Shown: positions 1 through 18,045 of the stretch, piece by piece
How positions within the stretch are numbered: the stretch's first letter is position 1
Layout of the letters: each line of letters starts with the position of its first letter
Assembly (NCBI GenBank): GCA_043745355.1
Contig: JAYTSY010000009.1
Span: 17,783-81,782 of the forward strand
Reading direction: 5' to 3'
Length of the DNA: 64,000 nucleotides
Source: a bacterium
Lineage (GTDB): Bacteria > Patescibacteriota > Minisyncoccia > Phycocordibacterales > CAIZLB01
Made by a program: the position numbers and the translations under genes
The notes under the pieces: model-generated
Seen by the model: the letters and a program-made list of their open reading frames with translations, nothing else
Told to the model about the DNA's origin: nothing
The model's database searches: none

Positions 1-57
1 ATTATATATGTATGCTTAAAAATGTCAACAAGCTACCCTTGCTATCTGTGTGATTTG

Positions 58-66
58 TGATATAAT
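58..66 (+). promoter_or_regulatory. candidate extended -10 element (TGATATAAT) upstream of the DGR target gene
   Basis: TGnTATAAT read directly. The same element type recurs before other operons here (2869, 5610, 11991, 53400). No TSS data. Confidence 0.35.
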
Positions 67-102
67 ACTGGGTAGGTAAGGACTTTGAAATATTTGCGAG
101 TG

Positions 103-150
103 CGCCATAGCTAAAAGAAGCTGAATTATCGGCTTTTTCTAGCTATGGCG
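103..150 (+). other. long inverted repeat in the 5' leader of the DGR target gene
   Basis: Perfect 11-bp arms CGCCATAGCTA (103-113) and TAGCTATGGCG (140-150), with further imperfect inner pairing. It lies between the candidate -10 and the ATG at 245. Confidence 0.4.
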
Positions 151-244
151 AAACATCATTATCCTAATAATCTGCGGCGGGTCTGACTTGGTCAGAACGT
201 ACAAAGACTGGGATTGAGGGGTGCATTAGCTTGGCAAAACCAAC

Positions 245-1024
245 ATGAGTAATCAAACTGCAGCTGCAATCGCGGCTTTCGTTAACAGCATCAATTGGGA
301 GCACAAAGGGCTTGACCTTCAAGCCATCATCGAGGCGGGGAACCAAGGTAAACTCCGCGGTCCTTCGACCGACTGGCTTGTGAATCGTGGTTGGGAAAAA
401 GAAACTGAAACGAAGTCCATTAGTCCGAAATCTTTGACCACCCTGCTCGACCCTGTCGGCACGGTCAAGGTCCCGGCCACCACGACTCCGTTCGTCGCCA
501 AAGACCATTTTGTCGTGAACACGGACGCCGATGCTCCCGTGAAGATCTACGAAGTGTGGAACGGATTCAAAACCCGTTTTCTTCAGGGCGATGGCAAGAT
601 CGAGAAGCCGATCGGCGATTCTGATCTCCGTTATGCTCGTCTGAAGAAGCGTTCGACGGACACCTCTATCCTCGAAGAACTCGGTGGCGGGAAGAAGACG
701 CGGACGACGCTCACTGAAGTGTGGAGCCAGATGCTGAAGCACCCGAAAGGCGAGAAGGGAACCCTCCTCGTCAACGGTAACGCCAACATCTTCTACGTCG
801 AAACCGAAGTGATCCTTCCCGAAGAGGAACATCTCGCTTACGTGAACGAAGAAGATAAGAAAGTCGTTCTCTGTGCGGTCTACGTGTTCTGGAGCGGCGG
901 CGGTGGCTGGTTCGTCGGTGCCTACTCTGTTCTCTACGCCAATGGTTGGTTCGTTGGCGACCGGGTGTTCTCTCGCAATTCAGAACTCGAATCCTCGGAA
1001 CCTGTGGCTCCGGCGCAAGCCTGA
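245..1024 (+). CDS. DGR target (variable) protein; the C-terminal about 40 aa are encoded by the VR, likely a CLec-type fold
   Basis: 259-aa ORF. Its 3' end (864-978) is the VR copy of the TR. VR peptide is YVFWSGGGGWFVGAYSVLYANGWFVGDRVFSRN. I recognise no N-terminal domain and see no obvious signal peptide. Confidence 0.85.
   Translation: MSNQTAAAIAAFVNSINWEHKGLDLQAIIEAGNQGKLRGPSTDWLVNRGWEKETETKSISPKSLTTLLDPVGTVKVPATTTPFVAKDHFVVNTDADAPVKIYEVWNGFKTRFLQGDGKIEKPIGDSDLRYARLKKRSTDTSILEELGGGKKTRTTLTEVWSQMLKHPKGEKGTLLVNGNANIFYVETEVILPEEEHLAYVNEEDKKVVLCAVYVFWSGGGGWFVGAYSVLYANGWFVGDRVFSRNSELESSEPVAPAQA
864..978 (+). repeat. DGR variable region (VR)
   Basis: Hand alignment to 1337-1451 (offset 473): 115 positions, no indels, 22 mismatches, all opposite TR adenines. 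Confidence 0.95.
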
Positions 1025-1046
1025 TTCTTTGGCTCTTGGACACTTT

Positions 1047-1080
1047 GACCCTCGGTTCGCAATCTGCGGATCGGGGGTCA
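1047..1080 (+). terminator. possible hairpin terminator after the DGR target gene
   Basis: GACCC...GGGGTC pairing followed by a T-rich run (attttctatattt). The stem is imperfect. Confidence 0.3.
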
Positions 1081-1336
1081 TTTTCTATATTTAAAATATT
1101 GATATACTATTTTTGAAATCATGTGTTACACAACGGTCAAGACTTTTGTGTCATGGTCTTAGGATATTTTTTGCGAGAATTGTATTGGGTAAGCCTTGTG
1201 CAAGAGTGTGAAAAATATTTTTAAAAAATAATAAGAATTGGTATGCGGAGCTGGTGGACTTATATGTCCCGAATAATATTCAACCTGTCATGATTTGGGG
1301 GGTGGTGCAACAGATGGCTTCGCATACGAGAGTGGT

Positions 1337-1451
1337 TCGTTCTCTGTGCGGTCAACGTGAACTGGAACGACGGCAATGGCTGGAACGTCAATACCAACTC
1401 TGTTCTCAACACCAATGATTGGAACGATGGCAACCAGGTGTTCTCTCGAAA
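1337..1451 (+). repeat. DGR template repeat (TR)
   Basis: Non-coding copy of the VR with 31 adenines, of which 22 are substituted in VR. In the VR frame it is rich in AAC/AAT codons (NWNDGNGWNVNTNSVLNTNDWNDGNQ). Confidence 0.95.
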
Positions 1452-1456
1452 CTGTT

Positions 1457-1810
1457 TTATTTCTCCTCTGCTTTTGGCTGGGGAGTTTTTGTTAGTAGCC
1501 CCTTTTTCCATCCGCCGAGTTGTCGGCCTATCTCCTCAAGCCTTGAGAGAAAATCTGAATATTTAGCAGTGGGTATGAGCTTGTTCTCCCATGCAAGTTG
1601 AGCAAAAAACTTTACGACATCAAATTTTGTTACTGCTCTGTTAAGTAGAGGAATTTTGTGTTCGAGGGGAAGATAGCTGAGACAAAACATCAATTCGATA
1701 CAATCTAAAAAAGCCTGTTCAATTTTGTTTCCAATTCCATACCGCTCAACTTTCGGAAAATCACGATACAGTGTGAGCCAGAAACGATATGTCTCCTTCG
1801 CTTTGAGGAT
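1457..1810 (-). CDS. avd: Avd-like accessory variability determinant (four-helix bundle); start codon unresolved
   Basis: The minus-strand frame is open from 1825 to the stop at 1457-1459. It translates as ..VILKAKETYRFWLTLYRDFPKVERYGIGNKIEQAFLDCIELMFCLSYLP...LEEIGRQLGGWKKG, matching the Avd / 23S-IVS four-helix-bundle pattern. There is no ATG/GTG/TTG upstream of 1693, so an ATC at 1808-1810 is one possible start. Confidence 0.7.
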   Translation of the reverse strand: MLKAKETYRFWLTLYRDFPKVERYGIGNKIEQAFLDCIELMFCLSYLPLEHKIPLLNRAVTKFDVVKFFAQLAWENKLIPTAKYSDFLSRLEEIGRQLGGWKKGLLTKTPQPKAEEK

Positions 1811-1844
1811 TACCTGTGGTAATTCTCAAGGGGGGGGTAGTATT

Positions 1845-2876
1845 ATGATTCATATGAATTGTAGTTACCAAGATATCATATCTATTCAGAATCTGTGCGA
1901 AGCATGGTGTGAATTCGTGCGAGGTAAGAAATCAAAAAAGGATGTTGCGGAATTTTTTCTTAATTTATCACAAAATATTTTTATGCTTCACGAGGAACTG
2001 GCAAGCAAGACGTATATTCATGGTGCTTATGAAGCTTTTAATATCTCGGATCCAAAACCGAGAAATATTCACAAAGCGACAGTAAGAGACAGGTTGCTCC
2101 ACCATGCCATCTATAAAATTCTGTATCCGTATTTCGACAAGAAATTCATATATGATTCTTATTCATGCAGGAATATGAAAGGAACGCACAAGGCAGGAAA
2201 ACGTTTCTTAGATTTTGCCAGAAAGGAATCGCTAAACAATAAACGTACATGTTGGGTGCTTAAATGCGACATAAGGAAATTCTTTGCTTCGGTGGATCAG
2301 AGTATTCTCATCAAAATATTGAGACGATATATTTCTGACGAAAATACAATCTGGCTTATTGAGAAAATATTGGAAAGTTTTTCAAGCACAGGAGAGACGA
2401 TAGGATTGCCACTCGGCAATCTGACATCACAGCTATTGGTCAATATTTATATGAACGAGTTCGACCAGTGGGTGAAGCATGTTATGAAATTAAAATATTA
2501 TATACGCTATGCTGATGACTTCGTAATTCTAAGTCGTGACAAACATTACTTGCATGAATTGACCCCAAAAATCGCATATTTCTTGAACGAATATTCAGGA
2601 CTGTCGCTTCACCCTAAGAAGGTGTCTATTAATACATTTGCCTCCGGTGTCGACTTCCTCGGCTGGATTCATTTTCCTAACCATCGCGTCTTGCGCACTA
2701 CCACCAAACGCCGAATGTTCAACAATATAATAGAAAAACAGGGGAAGAAAGAAACCATCCAGTCATATCTCGGACTTCTACGTCACGGCAATAGTGGAAA
2801 ACTACAAAAAGAAGTTAAAAATATTTCAAATAATTTTGCACAGTCGCAAGTTAAAAACAGCGATAGTTTGATATAA
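1845..2876 (+). CDS. DGR-type reverse transcriptase
   Basis: RT motifs include IGLPLGNLTSQLLVNIYMNEFD (DGR-typical LGxxxSQ) and YIRYADDFVILS (YxDD). The ATG at 1845 follows a G-rich RBS (aagggggggtag). ORF-track codons 1725-1844 are antisense to avd and probably not translated. Confidence 0.9.
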   Translation: MIHMNCSYQDIISIQNLCEAWCEFVRGKKSKKDVAEFFLNLSQNIFMLHEELASKTYIHGAYEAFNISDPKPRNIHKATVRDRLLHHAIYKILYPYFDKKFIYDSYSCRNMKGTHKAGKRFLDFARKESLNNKRTCWVLKCDIRKFFASVDQSILIKILRRYISDENTIWLIEKILESFSSTGETIGLPLGNLTSQLLVNIYMNEFDQWVKHVMKLKYYIRYADDFVILSRDKHYLHELTPKIAYFLNEYSGLSLHPKKVSINTFASGVDFLGWIHFPNHRVLRTTTKRRMFNNIIEKQGKKETIQSYLGLLRHGNSGKLQKEVKNISNNFAQSQVKNSDSLI

Positions 2877-2921
2877 TAAACTCACAAATCGCACCTTTCA
2901 CAAAAGGTGCCTGACCCCAAC
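2869..2921 (+). promoter_or_regulatory. conserved promoter and palindrome leader, copy 1 (TGATATAAT, then GCACCTTT-CACA-AAAGGTGC, then CTGACCCCAA)
   Basis: About 50-nt element nearly identical to 5610-5662. The extended -10 overlaps the RT stop codon. The perfect 8-bp inverted repeat lies just downstream of the expected TSS. Confidence 0.5.
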
Positions 2922-3695
2922 ATGTCCCTCAACCTCCTCCAGCATCTCAATCATCTCGGTCTCTCGTCCAAAGAAATTGAAGTATATGAATTTCTCCTTG
3001 CGGTAGAAGCAGCATATCCAATGGAAATAGCCAAAGAAACGAGAATGAAGCGCTCAACGGTGTATGTCATTCTCGATTTGCTCAAGAAAAAAGGATTGGT
3101 CCGAGAAGTTCAGAGAGGAAAGCGTTTCGTGTACATATCAGAGGAGCCGGAACGCATTAGATTTCTTCTTGAAAAACTCAAACTTGAAACGGAGGATCAA
3201 ATAAAAAGCTTGGATCAAATCATCCCGCAGCTCAAGGCTACTGTTCGCAAAAAAGGCGAAGCACCCATCATAAAGTTTTTTGAAGGTGAAAAGGCCGTAC
3301 AAAATTCTATGGAAGAATTGGTAGCAAATCCAAAATTTCGATCCGAACTTGATTACGGGGTTTTTTCTCTCGAATTGATCTATAAATTATTTAAATCAAG
3401 AAATTTAAAAAAATATATCGATTTCAGGCTTACAACTAACAAACTTTTCAAAGTTATTTATACTGCTGAGGAGGGGGAAATTGCGGCGGGTATAGATGGA
3501 CAAGAAGCAATTAAAGTTGATCATGGAGAATATCCATTTTCATGTGACATCAGTGTATTCGAAGACGAGGTCCGTTTTCATATGTTGGGCAAGACAATTT
3601 ATGGCATTTTGATAAAAAACCCAGAGTTGGCAGGGACTTTAACTAGTTTGATTAAGTTGGCAGCGGGGAATGCTCAAATCCCACAGAGTAAATAA
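2922..3695 (+). CDS. TrmB-like winged-helix transcriptional regulator
   Basis: N-terminal LGLSSKEIEVYEFLL...STVYVILDLLKKKGLV HTH pattern, with a C-terminal domain shared with three paralogs in this window. The ATG at 2922 is preferred over the GTG at 2907, which lies inside the leader hairpin. Confidence 0.7.
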   Translation: MSLNLLQHLNHLGLSSKEIEVYEFLLAVEAAYPMEIAKETRMKRSTVYVILDLLKKKGLVREVQRGKRFVYISEEPERIRFLLEKLKLETEDQIKSLDQIIPQLKATVRKKGEAPIIKFFEGEKAVQNSMEELVANPKFRSELDYGVFSLELIYKLFKSRNLKKYIDFRLTTNKLFKVIYTAEEGEIAAGIDGQEAIKVDHGEYPFSCDISVFEDEVRFHMLGKTIYGILIKNPELAGTLTSLIKLAAGNAQIPQSK

Positions 3696-3873
3696 TTATT
3701 TAAAACGTCTAAGTCTTACTAAACATCTAATTACATTAGATATACTCATAAATAGATAATATCTAGTATATTTTAGAGCAGTATTTTAAATACATCTAAT
3801 ATAAATTGACACTTTTTAACATTAACATAGTATTAACACCAGAAAAGGTCATTGACAAAGGAGGGCATATCGC

Positions 3874-3939
3874 CAGAGCGTAGCTTGCTGTGTGGTTGGA
3901 CAAAGATCCAACTAAACACGCATAGCAAGCTACGCTCTG
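3874..3939 (+). other. 66-nt near-perfect hairpin in a G+C-richer leader upstream of the SPFH gene; candidate structured RNA or attenuator
   Basis: 16-bp perfect outer stem CAGAGCGTAGCTTGCT / AGCAAGCTACGCTCTG, then GTGT/ACAC and GTTGGA/TCCAAC inner stems. TTGACA-like boxes lie upstream at about 3816 and 3852. Confidence 0.35.
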
Positions 3940-4043
3940 TGAGCGCAAGTAAGTCAGTCTGTTGGCTTCCTGTTTAGGGAAGAGAGATACGAGAAGCATT
4001 TAGGCTAATCGGCTCTCTAATAGACGGCACTACGCGCTCCGTT

Positions 4044-5453
4044 ATGCGCTTTCAACAAAACAAGTATATGAAGACACTTATCGTGTTTCTGTGGATCGCG
4101 GCTTTAGCCGTATCGGTCACCCTCAATTCGTGGGTGCTCGTCAATCCTATCGTCGGACCTCACCTGGCTGCGCAAGCGGTAAATGGTGGTGACAATGAGT
4201 TCATCGCGAGTCATGCCTATCAGGGTGGTACTCGCGCCCTCGTGTCCCTCGAGTTCTGGGCGAGCCTTGCCATTTTTCTGATCCCCCTCGGGGTGACGAT
4301 GTGGTATCGGCGCGTGCAAATCAACAAAGTTATGCAGAGGGTTGGCGCGGCTATGCTCCTTCTCCTCATGCTTAACCTAGGTGGTTGCATGAAAGCCTAC
4401 AAGACGCCTCAATATGTCGAGGTCAAGCCCTCGCAAACGGCGTTTTTTATCCCGCTCGTTGGTGACAACAAAGCGGGGCAGGCAAAGTTTGACTCGAAGA
4501 CCTATGAAGCGTTCAAGAAGATTGGAGTAAAGAGACTTGAAGTTCCTCAGGAATGGCTGCCGACTGGACGAATGGAAAATAACGGCAAGTGGGTGCCCTC
4601 GGCCCGTGTGGTCATCGTCGATCGTTCCTCGGTCACGCGTGAATGGACAAAGAGCCTCCATAGTGGAAGCAAAAGCATTGACCAAGCGGTCAGTGTCGAG
4701 TCGCAAGACTCTGTTAACTTCTCGCTCGGCTTCAAGGTGACGGCCTACATCGCCGAAGAGGATACTTCAACGTTCCTCTACTACAATGCCTCTCGCGTCA
4801 AGGAAGATGCGTCTGGTCGTTGCGAAGTCGTCGGTCTCGACGAAGTGATGGACACTGAAGTCCTCTCGCGTCTCCAAAAAGTGGCTGCGCGTGAGTTCGG
4901 CCAATATCCGATGGACGTCGCACGGACCAAAAAGGCGGAGGTCTATGCCGTGATTGACACGGAAGTGATCCCGTTCTTCAAGGAACGTGGTATTACGATC
5001 ATGACGATCGCTCAGCTCGGCGGTTTGAGCTACGACAACATCAAGATCCAAGAAGCGATTGATAAGACAGTCATGGATCAGCAGGAGAAAGTCAGTGCTT
5101 TGGCTGCGTTCGACGCTCAACAAACGAAGAATAAAACCATCAAGCTGTCTGCCGAAGCCGAAGCTGCCGCAACGCTTACCAAAGCGGAAGGTGAAGCCAA
5201 AGGCAAACTCGCAGTGCAAAAAGCAATCGCTGAAGGTATCACTGCCGTCAACGAGGCGACCAAAGCTTCCGGTAGCAGCGAGGTGTTCTTCAAGCTCAAA
5301 GAGCTGGAGGTCCAAATGGAGTTCGCCAAGGCGAGCAAGGGAAATGTGCCGGCGATTCTCATCACCGGCGAGAACAAAGGCGGGTCAGGAACGAACTTCC
5401 CGCTCTCACTACCTCCTGATGTGTTGAAGAACAGTCAGACTCCCGCGAAGTGA
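4044..5453 (+). CDS. SPFH/band-7-like membrane or lipoprotein with a coiled-coil C-terminus
   Basis: C-terminal half resembles prohibitin/HflK-type SPFH plus an Ala/Glu/Lys coiled coil. There are N-terminal TM segments. An internal lipoprotein-type signal (MQRVGAAMLLLLMLNLGGC) begins at the ATG at 4332, so the start is uncertain (4044, 4068 or 4332). Confidence 0.6.
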   Translation: MRFQQNKYMKTLIVFLWIAALAVSVTLNSWVLVNPIVGPHLAAQAVNGGDNEFIASHAYQGGTRALVSLEFWASLAIFLIPLGVTMWYRRVQINKVMQRVGAAMLLLLMLNLGGCMKAYKTPQYVEVKPSQTAFFIPLVGDNKAGQAKFDSKTYEAFKKIGVKRLEVPQEWLPTGRMENNGKWVPSARVVIVDRSSVTREWTKSLHSGSKSIDQAVSVESQDSVNFSLGFKVTAYIAEEDTSTFLYYNASRVKEDASGRCEVVGLDEVMDTEVLSRLQKVAAREFGQYPMDVARTKKAEVYAVIDTEVIPFFKERGITIMTIAQLGGLSYDNIKIQEAIDKTVMDQQEKVSALAAFDAQQTKNKTIKLSAEAEAAATLTKAEGEAKGKLAVQKAIAEGITAVNEATKASGSSEVFFKLKELEVQMEFAKASKGNVPAILITGENKGGSGTNFPLSLPPDVLKNSQTPAK

Positions 5454-16986: not shown

Positions 16987-18045
16987 ATGGAAGACAACCG
17001 ATTAAACAAAAGAATACCGCTATCGCAAGACATTCTGACCAAGATCTCCAAAATAGATCAATTTCAGGGTCTTTGGCAGGGAAGTCTCCGACTCAGTCCG
17101 CAAATTCTCGGGCGTCTCAAAGCGTTCGTCATCATTACTTCGACAGGTGCCTCGACTCGTATTGAGGGGGCAAAGATGACTGACGATGAAATTGCTCGCT
17201 TTTTACGAGGGCTTGGTGCCAAGTCGCCGAAAGGACGCGACGAACAGGAAGTGGCAGGATATGCCGATCTTATCGGCCGTGTTTTTGATAATTGGAAAAC
17301 AATAAAACTCACTGAAGGCTGGATACAGCAGTTCCACAGTATTCTTCTTAACTTCTCAGAGAAGGACAAAAACCATAAGGGCAAATATAAGGATGGCGAC
17401 AATGCTGTCATTATGGAAAATGACAAAAAAGAAGAAGTCGTGCTTTTTAATCCTACCCATTCATATCTTGTAAAGGGAGAAATGCTAGCCGCAATTGAAT
17501 GGACAAATGAACAACTCGAAAAACGTGAAATCCATCCGCTTCTTGTGATTGCAAACTTTATATTTGAATTCCTCGCAATCCATCCGTTTTCTGATGGTAA
17601 CGGCCGAGTAAGTCGTGCTCTTACTAACCTGTTACTTCTTCAGGCAGGATACAGCTATGTGCCTTATGTTTCTCTCGATGAAATTATTGAGCAGACTAAA
17701 GTCGACTATTACCTCGCACTCCGCGCTACCCAAAAGAATCATGGAACTGACCATGAAGATATTGCTCCGTGGATTAATTACTTCCTCACATCGCTCGCGG
17801 AACAGACCGATCGAGCGCACAAGATCATGAATAAAGATCAGCCAGAGAAACTCCTTTCTGAAAAACAGAAAGAGGTATTTCAGCAATTCACCGAAGGGAG
17901 GGAAATGGGAGTGGCAGAAGTCCTCACACTTCTCCAAGGTAGAATTGAAAGAGAAACTATCAAACAAGCATTGTCACGTCTGGTAAAATTAAAACTTCTA
18001 GAGCGTGTAGGGCAAAGTCGAGGGACGAGGTATGTAAAAATATAA
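16987..18045 (+). CDS. Fic-family protein with an N-terminal inhibitory motif and a C-terminal winged helix
   Basis: Fic motif HPFSDGNGRVSR and upstream S-T-R-I-E-G ([ST]xxxE[GN]). The start may be the ATG at 16987 or the TTG at 16966. Confidence 0.88.
   Translation: MEDNRLNKRIPLSQDILTKISKIDQFQGLWQGSLRLSPQILGRLKAFVIITSTGASTRIEGAKMTDDEIARFLRGLGAKSPKGRDEQEVAGYADLIGRVFDNWKTIKLTEGWIQQFHSILLNFSEKDKNHKGKYKDGDNAVIMENDKKEEVVLFNPTHSYLVKGEMLAAIEWTNEQLEKREIHPLLVIANFIFEFLAIHPFSDGNGRVSRALTNLLLLQAGYSYVPYVSLDEIIEQTKVDYYLALRATQKNHGTDHEDIAPWINYFLTSLAEQTDRAHKIMNKDQPEKLLSEKQKEVFQQFTEGREMGVAEVLTLLQGRIERETIKQALSRLVKLKLLERVGQSRGTRYVKI

Follow-up and report, generated by a model that had tools for sequence, protein, structure and literature searches.

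The stretch of DNA analysed in this work, hereafter the window, spans 64 kb (contig JAYTSY010000009.1, forward-strand positions 17,783 to 81,782) of a Patescibacteria genome and contains a complete diversity-generating retroelement (DGR) encoded on the plus strand, with the body of the accessory gene avd placed on the minus strand. Bacteria of the candidate phyla radiation (CPR) carry a large share of known DGRs and, to our knowledge, the regulation of DGR activity is largely unknown. We describe here the organization of this cassette and of its relatives, focusing on the 5' end of avd, which in the window has no canonical start codon for its first helix, and on a poly-C/G tract, lying between the avd body and an upstream ATG, that may set the reading frame of the gene.

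Results

Organization of the DGR cassette

The DGR target gene (open reading frame, ORF, 245-1024, +) encodes a 259-aa product with no match in Pfam or NCBIfam, and harbors the variable repeat (VR, 864-978, +) at its 3' end. The template repeat (TR, 1337-1451, +) pairs with the VR with 22 mismatches, 22/22 of them at TR adenines. The reverse transcriptase gene (RT, 1845-2876, +, ATG at 1845) encodes a 343-aa RVT_1 protein (E = 3.8e-26) carrying the DGR-type motif 4 LGNLTSQ ((I/L)GxxxSQ) and the catalytic YADD (YxDD). Between TR and RT, the avd body occupies positions 1457-1825 of the minus strand, with 122 open codons followed by a TAA. No second Avd, RT or VR able to act in trans was found within the 64-kb window.

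The order found in the window, namely TR, reverse-strand avd, and RT on the strand of the TR, identifies the source cassette as a B3-architecture TR-(avd)-RT DGR of a Patescibacteria/CPR bacterium. According to Wu et al. (2018; NAR 46:11, PMC5758913), who define it, this architecture accounts for 90% of their CPR set, and the window agrees with the B3 DGRs described there in gene order, in the reversed avd, in an upstream target gene carrying the VR at its 3' end, in adenine-specific changes and in taxon. For comparison, we collected 80 genome loci encoding relatives of the window Avd, almost all from Patescibacteria/CPR metagenome-assembled genomes (MAGs), and classified 76 of them by start codon and tract. 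The B3 order was common to ~75 related loci, and RT was head-to-head with avd in essentially all the loci fetched, the aligned starts of both proteins usually being ~20-60 nt apart. In ~60 loci the TR ended -35 to +29 nt from the avd stop, the VR lay ~430-520 nt upstream, and 92% of the TR/VR mismatches fell at TR adenines. Antisense avd and its abutment to the TR are therefore already known biology and the norm of the family, and the idea of an inverted gene, put forward in a first-pass annotation of this DNA made from the sequence alone, is rejected because the orientation is both family-wide and published.

The avd gene lacks a start codon for its first helix

The same annotation had placed the avd frame and its stops, both repeats and the RT ATG, and all these coordinates were confirmed. 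The frame is open from 1825 to 1460 on the minus strand, bounded by a TAA (1459-1457) and, upstream, by an in-frame TGA (1828-1826). Its assignment to Avd also holds, since protein profiles and the four-helix fold agree. The 122-codon frame matches Pfam bAvd (PF22296) with 43.9 bits (cut-off 40), and the NCBIfam Avd profile NF033474 with 60.6 bits (E = 1.4e-16), a score under the equivalog cut-off of 80, the alignment covering profile positions 3-104 from Avd residue 5. A model obtained with AlphaFold using 40 homologues (predicted local distance difference test score 90.8) predicts helices at residues 4-20, 25-49, 54-80 and 86-113; by Foldseek, it superposes on the Bordetella phage Avd 4DWL, with template modelling scores of 0.80/0.90, and also matches the Avd of the DGR ribonucleoprotein structure 8UB7. 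A PDB sequence search with the Avd profile gave no match, so that these structures were reached by fold search only. Across the family, the ratio of nonsynonymous to synonymous divergence (dN/dS) of avd is ~0.1, with synonymous sites near saturation; avd is thus a genuine, selected coding gene, contrary to the possibility, raised beforehand, that the minus-strand ORF might not be conserved at the protein level. The nearest relative of the window is only ~75% (RT) to 82% (Avd) identical, and the window Avd C-terminus (...PKAEEK; 1457-1475, -) is several residues longer than that of most relatives.

The N-terminal helix, previously regarded as part of the bundle, corresponds to helix 1 of the model, and no ATG, GTG or TTG able to serve it exists between the TGA at 1828-1826 and the TTG at 1693, as had been stated. 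This TTG and the ATG at 1690 are the sole canonical starts of the frame; initiation at either would yield a protein lacking helix 1 and almost the whole of helix 2, and public gene calls take that internal start, giving 77 aa (P0061). From the codon usage of the window, 44 codons without a start have a probability of ~0.065 by chance, which is only mildly unlikely when taken alone; the absence is meaningful because the start-less stretch corresponds to the conserved helices 1-2.

Several candidate explanations were rejected. Alternative code 25 (UGA = Gly) is incompatible with the finding that code-11 ORFs of at least 150 aa cover 81% of the window and that 8 of them end in TGA, which is thus a genuine stop in this genome. 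Read-through of both upstream TGAs still reaches a TAA (1867-1865) with no start codon on the way, and termination-reinitiation after an out-of-frame leader ORF would place the leader stop ~60 nt inside avd, where no start is close by.

A poly-C/G tract at the avd/RT junction

Directly upstream of the avd body, on the avd strand, lies a homopolymer tract (1830-1837; C8 on the minus strand, G8 on the plus strand), which is the sole G/C run of at least 7 in the 64 kb and is located between an avd-strand ATG and the avd body. The tract is site-specific in the family: 64 G/C runs of at least 8 were found at the avd/RT junction, vs 4 elsewhere in 569 kb of flanking sequence, and the tract reaches at least 8 in 61/76 classified loci. 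Its length is mostly C8-C11, the modal lengths in order being C10, C9, C11 and C8, and it encodes the 'PPP' of the conserved Avd N-terminal motif PPPR-ELPQVILK. On the RT strand, the poly-G ends 4-7 nt before the RT ATG across the family, and the window tract is 7 nt upstream of that ATG, where the G-run is likely to act as the Shine-Dalgarno sequence of RT.

Other sequences were seen at the same position in some loci, including an in-frame poly-G (poly-Gly) in L043 (~3980-3995), a (CA)n dinucleotide repeat (THTHTHT) out of phase in L075 (~2030-2065), and a C16 tract in L072 (~3955-3975). Three loci sharing RT lineage P0228 (L122-L124) have no homopolymer at the junction (C3), and differ from each other in the VR and in a group of positions 11-16 nt before RT begins.

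An upstream ATG opens a path through the tract

A candidate start frame was defined independently of avd, as the avd-strand frame that is codon-aligned with RT. In this frame, an ATG upstream of the tract and before any stop was found in 53/58 loci, against 42% in an RT-body control (nominal binomial p = 5e-15), and the other two frames showed such an ATG in 12/116 cases. Each of these ATGs is complementary to an RT His codon or, as in L099, abuts the RT ATG as CAT|ATG, so that the 5' ends of avd and RT overlap or touch. Whether the ATG falls in the avd frame depends on the tract: this was the case in 16/58 long-tract loci vs 9/13 loci with short or interrupted tracts (Fisher p = 0.008). Altogether, 32/76 loci had no in-frame canonical start from the upstream stop to residue 12, and nearly all these 32 possessed an ATG in another frame with an open path into the tract. 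Database proteins from in-phase loci read M...(T)PP(P)RELPQVILK, for instance MAHPNKDYITPPRELPQ and MLNNITPPRELPQ. The prospect that orthologues would restore an ATG was therefore borne out in its essence, given that in-phase orthologues read M...PPPRELPQVILK, and not in the form anticipated, namely a sequencing error in the window.

Loci out of phase do not look decayed, with counts of VR/TR mismatches at A and at non-A positions equal to those of in-phase loci. The loci with short or interrupted tracts (L084/L092; L009, L048, L051, L081; e.g., ACCACCCCCC) mostly have their ATG in the avd frame, which makes them look locked on. Many public Avd homologues from this clade (P0015, P0018, P0042, P0043 and P0061, among others) are called at 77-113 aa from an internal Met such as that of MKETY, presumably because their tract is out of phase, which would make this a systematic annotation problem.

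A different account of these data is that Avd is initiated at a non-canonical codon 3' of the tract (ATC 1810-1808, GTA 1813-1811 or TTA 1822-1820), the ATG and its phase being irrelevant and the tract serving as the RT ribosome-binding site only. Consistent with this, purifying selection acts on avd and the VRs look active although 72% of long-tract loci are out of phase; the bodies are intact in the window and in L040 despite stops just upstream of the N-terminus (in L040, a TGA immediately preceding VILK); the Avd hidden Markov model begins only 2 residues before Val5; and a weak -10-like element lies just before the tract. However, no position displays a conserved near-cognate codon, the Val codon varying among GTA, GTC, GTT, GTG and GCA, and the Ile position among ATH, CTT, CTC and GTG, so that the non-canonical start which orthologues had been expected to share, and the ATC at 1808 that had been offered as an example, find no counterpart at a fixed position. 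Furthermore, no Shine-Dalgarno precedes the candidate codons, which lie inside the arm of a stable hairpin, and the orthologues point instead to the upstream ATG. This account also leaves unexplained the ATG-opened frame in 53/58 loci, the in-frame ATG of short-tract loci, and the in-frame reading of the PPPR region in in-phase proteins. We consider initiation downstream of the tract at a non-AUG codon improbable, and less likely than initiation at the upstream ATG.

Tract length differs between near-identical strains

Strains that are otherwise nearly identical differ in tract length. L091 (C8) and L098 (C9) show 5 differences in 2633 nt, corresponding to 1 tract indel and 4 VR changes, and L016 (C10) and L088 (C11) show 19 differences in 3000 nt, of which 1 is a tract indel, 14 are in the VR and 4 elsewhere. 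We further compared contigs encoding exactly the same RT protein. Tracts were C9, C11, C11, C12 and C12 in RT lineage P0125; C10, C10, C11, C11 and C12 in P0139, where two further contigs end in the tract; C8 and C10 in P0232, this being the sole difference in 2591 nt, again with two further contigs ending in the tract; and C11, C11 and C12 in P0126. Three members of P0217 shared C9, two of them differing at 14 positions, all in the VR. The called Avd length follows the tract on an identical RT, with 130 vs 93 aa for C8 vs C10, and 123-124 aa (C10/C11) vs 58 aa (C12). Four contigs from different samples (L110, L111, L120 and L121) end exactly inside the poly-C/G tract, which fits either length heterogeneity within samples or poor sequencing through the run.

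It could be argued that errors of sequencing or assembly at a homopolymer account for both the absent start and the stop codon, as runs of 8-12 are prone to error and several contigs terminate within the tract. For the window, a one-off error is ruled out: two Logan assemblies from independent runs (SRR22198270 and SRR23617272) are base-identical to positions 81-4415, so that three assemblies agree across 4.3 kb. Moreover, the pure run includes neither the TGA nor the TT at the end of the window tract; differences of 2-3 nt, and not of 1 alone, occur among relatives; and ~70% of independent MAGs from many studies are out of phase. An artefact is very improbable. The three assemblies of the window lineage, being identical, show no tract polymorphism and offer no VR contrast, whereas relatives show VR-only differences.

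Alternatively, the frame might be restored beyond the DNA level, through RNA polymerase slippage on C8-C11 or a tRNA-Pro +1 slip on CCC-C during poly-proline stalling, in which case every tract length would give low, tuned Avd levels and drift of the DNA would be tolerated. Homopolymers are known sites of transcriptional slippage, and CCC-C is a +1-prone site dependent on m1G37 and elongation factor P. In line with this alternative, the three phases occur at comparable frequency without enrichment of 'on', the out-of-phase pair L016/L088 still differs in its VR, and the modal C10 is one base over the in-phase C9 in several lineages, i.e., a +1 shift would be needed. On the other hand, no single direction of shift is conserved (16 loci are in frame 1 and 23 in frame 2), transcriptional slippage is less efficient on C/G runs than on A/T runs, and the length polymorphism observed directly in the DNA is sufficient alone. 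Nor would such slippage rescue the window allele, whose avd frame meets the TGA once past the tract. We regard this alternative as unlikely.

RNA elements overlap both ends of avd

The first-pass annotation had advised folding the plus-strand RNA of TR and spacer in search of a structure, and the segment between TR and RT does contain two conserved elements: a stem-loop at 1805-1827 and a hairpin next to the TR. The RT-proximal stem-loop (1803-1829, +; core GAGGAUUACC-UGU-GGUAAUUCUC at 1805-1827), recognized by covariation, overlies avd codons 1-8 on the other strand, directly before the G-run. In this stem, 88% of cells are paired (24 distinct sequences), against 25-55% in slid controls; double-sided changes occur in 7/12 pairs; and 16 compensatory cells were counted vs 4.9 in shuffles (0/500 as high). 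Its wobble pairs fit the RT-sense strand only, and window positions 1780-1860 fold with -30.4 kcal/mol on the plus strand (z = -5.2) vs -14.9 kcal/mol on the minus strand. Synonymous divergence is lowered in the eight avd codons under the stem.

The TR-proximal hairpin (1463-1490, +; CTCCTCTGC-TTTT-GGCTGGGGAG, followed by TTTTT) overlaps the avd 3' end and, with a GC-rich stem-loop and a U-run, presents the form of a putative intrinsic terminator. A perfect 7-bp stem before TTTT was found at this site in 47/68 loci vs 22% of shuffles, and the stems covary, with 48 distinct stem pairs (L003-L082, TR/avd-stop junction). In relatives, the avd stop is usually located between the two arms; in the window, the corresponding loop position is AAA (Lys), so avd runs a few codons further, and this loss places its stop ~5 nt from the TR, the family-typical distance being 10-20 nt. 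The abutment of TR and avd is explained by the terminator-like hairpin that directly follows the TR. The hairpin suggests that the TR RNA may be a discrete terminated transcript, or that the hairpin itself may be an RNA element of the DGR; the hairpins might serve to terminate the TR RNA, to prime synthesis or bind the RT, or to regulate RT translation. Opposite GGGAGUUUU, on the avd strand, lies the sequence coding for the conserved 'KTP' at the Avd C-terminus.

RNAalifold on the whole 400-nt plus-strand spacer returned the RT-proximal stem, an invariant pairing between the G-run and CUUUCCC, and little else. In that pairing, the poly-G at 1830-1837 meets CUUUCCC at ~1584-1590, ~245 nt upstream (alignment A4, columns 420-426 with 174-180), a conserved segment that is the antisense of invariant Avd Trp-Glu codons. 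A local fold pairs the G-run instead with CUCCUUC (1795-1800 region), and both pairings are beyond a covariation test because all columns are invariant or G-U. An Rfam scan of window positions 1000-3000 at E <= 1 gave no match.

The avd allele of the window

The avd strand of the window reads ATG(1853-1851) AAT CAT AAT ACT A-C8-TT-GA-GAA. Its ATG, the complement of RT codon 3 (CAT), opens a frame through the tract (1851-1853, -) that is offset by one base from the avd frame and yields a 30-36-aa ORF (1761-1871) with an alternative start at TTG 1871-1869. The closest relative, L099, reads ATG CTA AAT AAT ATT A-C9-GA-GAA and is in frame. The last two tract positions of the window are TT instead of CC, and the in-frame TGA (1826-1828, -) stands where relatives have a conserved Arg codon, mostly CGA (PPPR|ELPQVILK). 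This TGA is met in the avd frame beyond the tract, so that the ATG cannot be connected to the body by any tract length or by any slippage inside the run, and the window allele is probably locked off for good. Any inactivation would be recent, given that all 122 codons of the body remain open and that VR and TR differ by A-to-N changes only. The former suggestion of a decaying gene finds some support in this allele, with its change from CGA to TGA. The window resembles the opposite of the loci that appear locked on, as if locked off via C-to-T changes at the end of the tract.

Features flanking the cassette elements

Downstream of the target gene, a GC-rich hairpin followed by a T-run (1046-1080, +) is terminator-like and, by analogy, may be the counterpart of the post-VR hairpin of other DGRs. 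A gene for a TrmB/MarR-type winged-helix regulator (2907-3695, +) lies directly 3' of RT on the same strand; in relatives the gene at this position varies, including ParA-like, GatC and others. The GC content is 0.51 for window positions 1-1000, higher in the half containing the VR, vs 0.37-0.39 for positions 2001-4000, which comprise RT and its neighbors; the TR is also GC-rich, as is the target gene region.

Discussion

The integration of these results leads us to propose that avd starts at an avd-strand ATG within or next to the first RT codons, so that avd and RT would be divergent genes with overlapping 5' ends, and that translation would cross the poly-C tract before reaching the conserved ...PPPR-ELPQVILK... 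N-terminus. The length of a hypermutable tract would then decide whether the ATG lies in the avd frame, and many Avd genes would seem start-less because most assembled genomes were caught out of phase. The tract, its site-specificity, its length polymorphism in otherwise identical strains, the ATG-opened frame, and the on/off frame relation were observed directly. Judging from these sequence features, the tract may act as a reversible on/off switch for Avd, and hence for mutagenic retrohoming, possibly through slipped-strand mispairing, with RNA polymerase slippage or tRNA-Pro +1 slippage on CCC-C as alternative routes for restoring the frame. We assign a probability of roughly 60% to this explanation as a whole, namely an upstream ATG, a hypervariable tract that sets the avd frame, and a window allele that is off.

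Several observations weigh against this proposal. In-phase loci are not enriched among those with long tracts (16/58; single-frame counts of 11:16:23 for frames 0:1:2), and there is thus no sign of selection favoring 'on'. Since the upstream ATGs complement RT His codons, their conservation could be partly RT-derived, and the loci are phylogenetically related, which makes the p-values given above optimistic. The VRs of L016 and L088 differ even though neither locus is in phase, which implies either that 'on' subpopulations exist or that expression is independent of the phase in the DNA. Single-base homopolymer miscalls are possible in individual pairs, alongside the differences of 2-3 nt also seen. 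In the window lineage, represented by three identical assemblies and with a distant nearest relative, a recent inactivation is inseparable from expression by another route. A weak promoter-like match on the minus strand (TTGGTA-18-CATAAT, 1871-1842) would put the transcription start inside the tract and leave the ATG out of the transcript; in the promoter and terminator scan, the number of promoter-like matches equaled the shuffle expectation and is hence uninformative. Finally, the data consist of assemblies alone, from whose sequence we infer mixture within populations, reversibility, the avd transcription start and the Avd N-terminus.

The DGR of Bordetella phage BPP-1 (mtd-avd-TR-brt) shares with the window the four-helix fold of Avd, the LGxxxSQ and YADD motifs of RT, adenine mutagenesis, and a structured RNA segment between TR and RT. 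It differs in that its avd is co-directional, upstream of the TR, and has an ordinary start, whereas the window avd is reversed and lies between TR and RT; likewise, the 140 nt that form the BPP-1 spacer are non-coding and contain a known priming adenosine, and the 390-nt spacer of the window is the antisense of avd. We know of no homopolymer switch in BPP-1.

The tract itself resembles those of the poly-G/C contingency loci of Neisseria, Haemophilus and Campylobacter, where tracts of at least 8 near the 5' end of an ORF vary in length and toggle the frame. The CPR loci likewise display a site-specific tract before the ORF body, length polymorphism, seen in relatives of the window, and a frame that shifts with length. 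Unlike in contingency loci, the gene that would be switched encodes a hypermutation accessory protein, and not a surface or restriction-modification function; the tract also lies in the 5' untranslated region and ribosome-binding site of a divergent RT; and the hosts are CPR bacteria. Contingency loci made of simple sequences have recently been found in phages as well (PMC12633550).

Programmed recoding (prfB-type +1 frameshifting, tRNA-Pro on CCC-C, and transcriptional slippage in dnaX and IS elements) also involves a slippery run between start and body, and genes that appear 'frameshifted' in annotation. However, programmed recoding relies on one fixed shift and a conserved length, while CPR avd would need both +1 and -1 shifts and its tract is polymorphic; the distribution over the three frames reveals no single conserved direction.

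Literature searches pairing DGRs or Avd with phase variation, homopolymers, slippage or frameshifting retrieved nothing relevant, and Wu et al. (2018), as judged from text searches, seem to mention no poly-C/G tract, divergent start overlap, phase dependence or flanking hairpins. The cassette type is known, whereas in the searchable literature we found no account of the tract between divergent starts, the frame-dependent Avd, and strains differing in tract and VR only.

For the window alone the message is modest, that of an ordinary B3 DGR with a probably dead avd allele. If our proposal is correct, it would explain why many avd genes of CPR bacteria are recorded as truncated or without a start, the 77-aa window Avd included, and the annotation could be corrected by placing the start inside the 5' end of RT and allowing for tract phase. 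Reconstituting CPR DGRs for directed evolution would likewise need a set tract length and the preservation of both RT-sense hairpins. If the tract is a switch, it would constitute a simple, sequence-readable regulator of targeted hypermutation, which could be scored from metagenomic reads against VR diversity. In broader terms, and more tentatively, since we hold this wider view to be somewhat short of an even chance, hypermutation itself may be phase-variable in a very large CPR/Patescibacteria DGR clade, whose RT has more than 7,900 homologues at E <= 1e-60: the tract would toggle translation of Avd, an essential accessory protein, and possibly tune that of RT, most cells would be off with rare switchers on, and the window would represent a switch broken in the off position.

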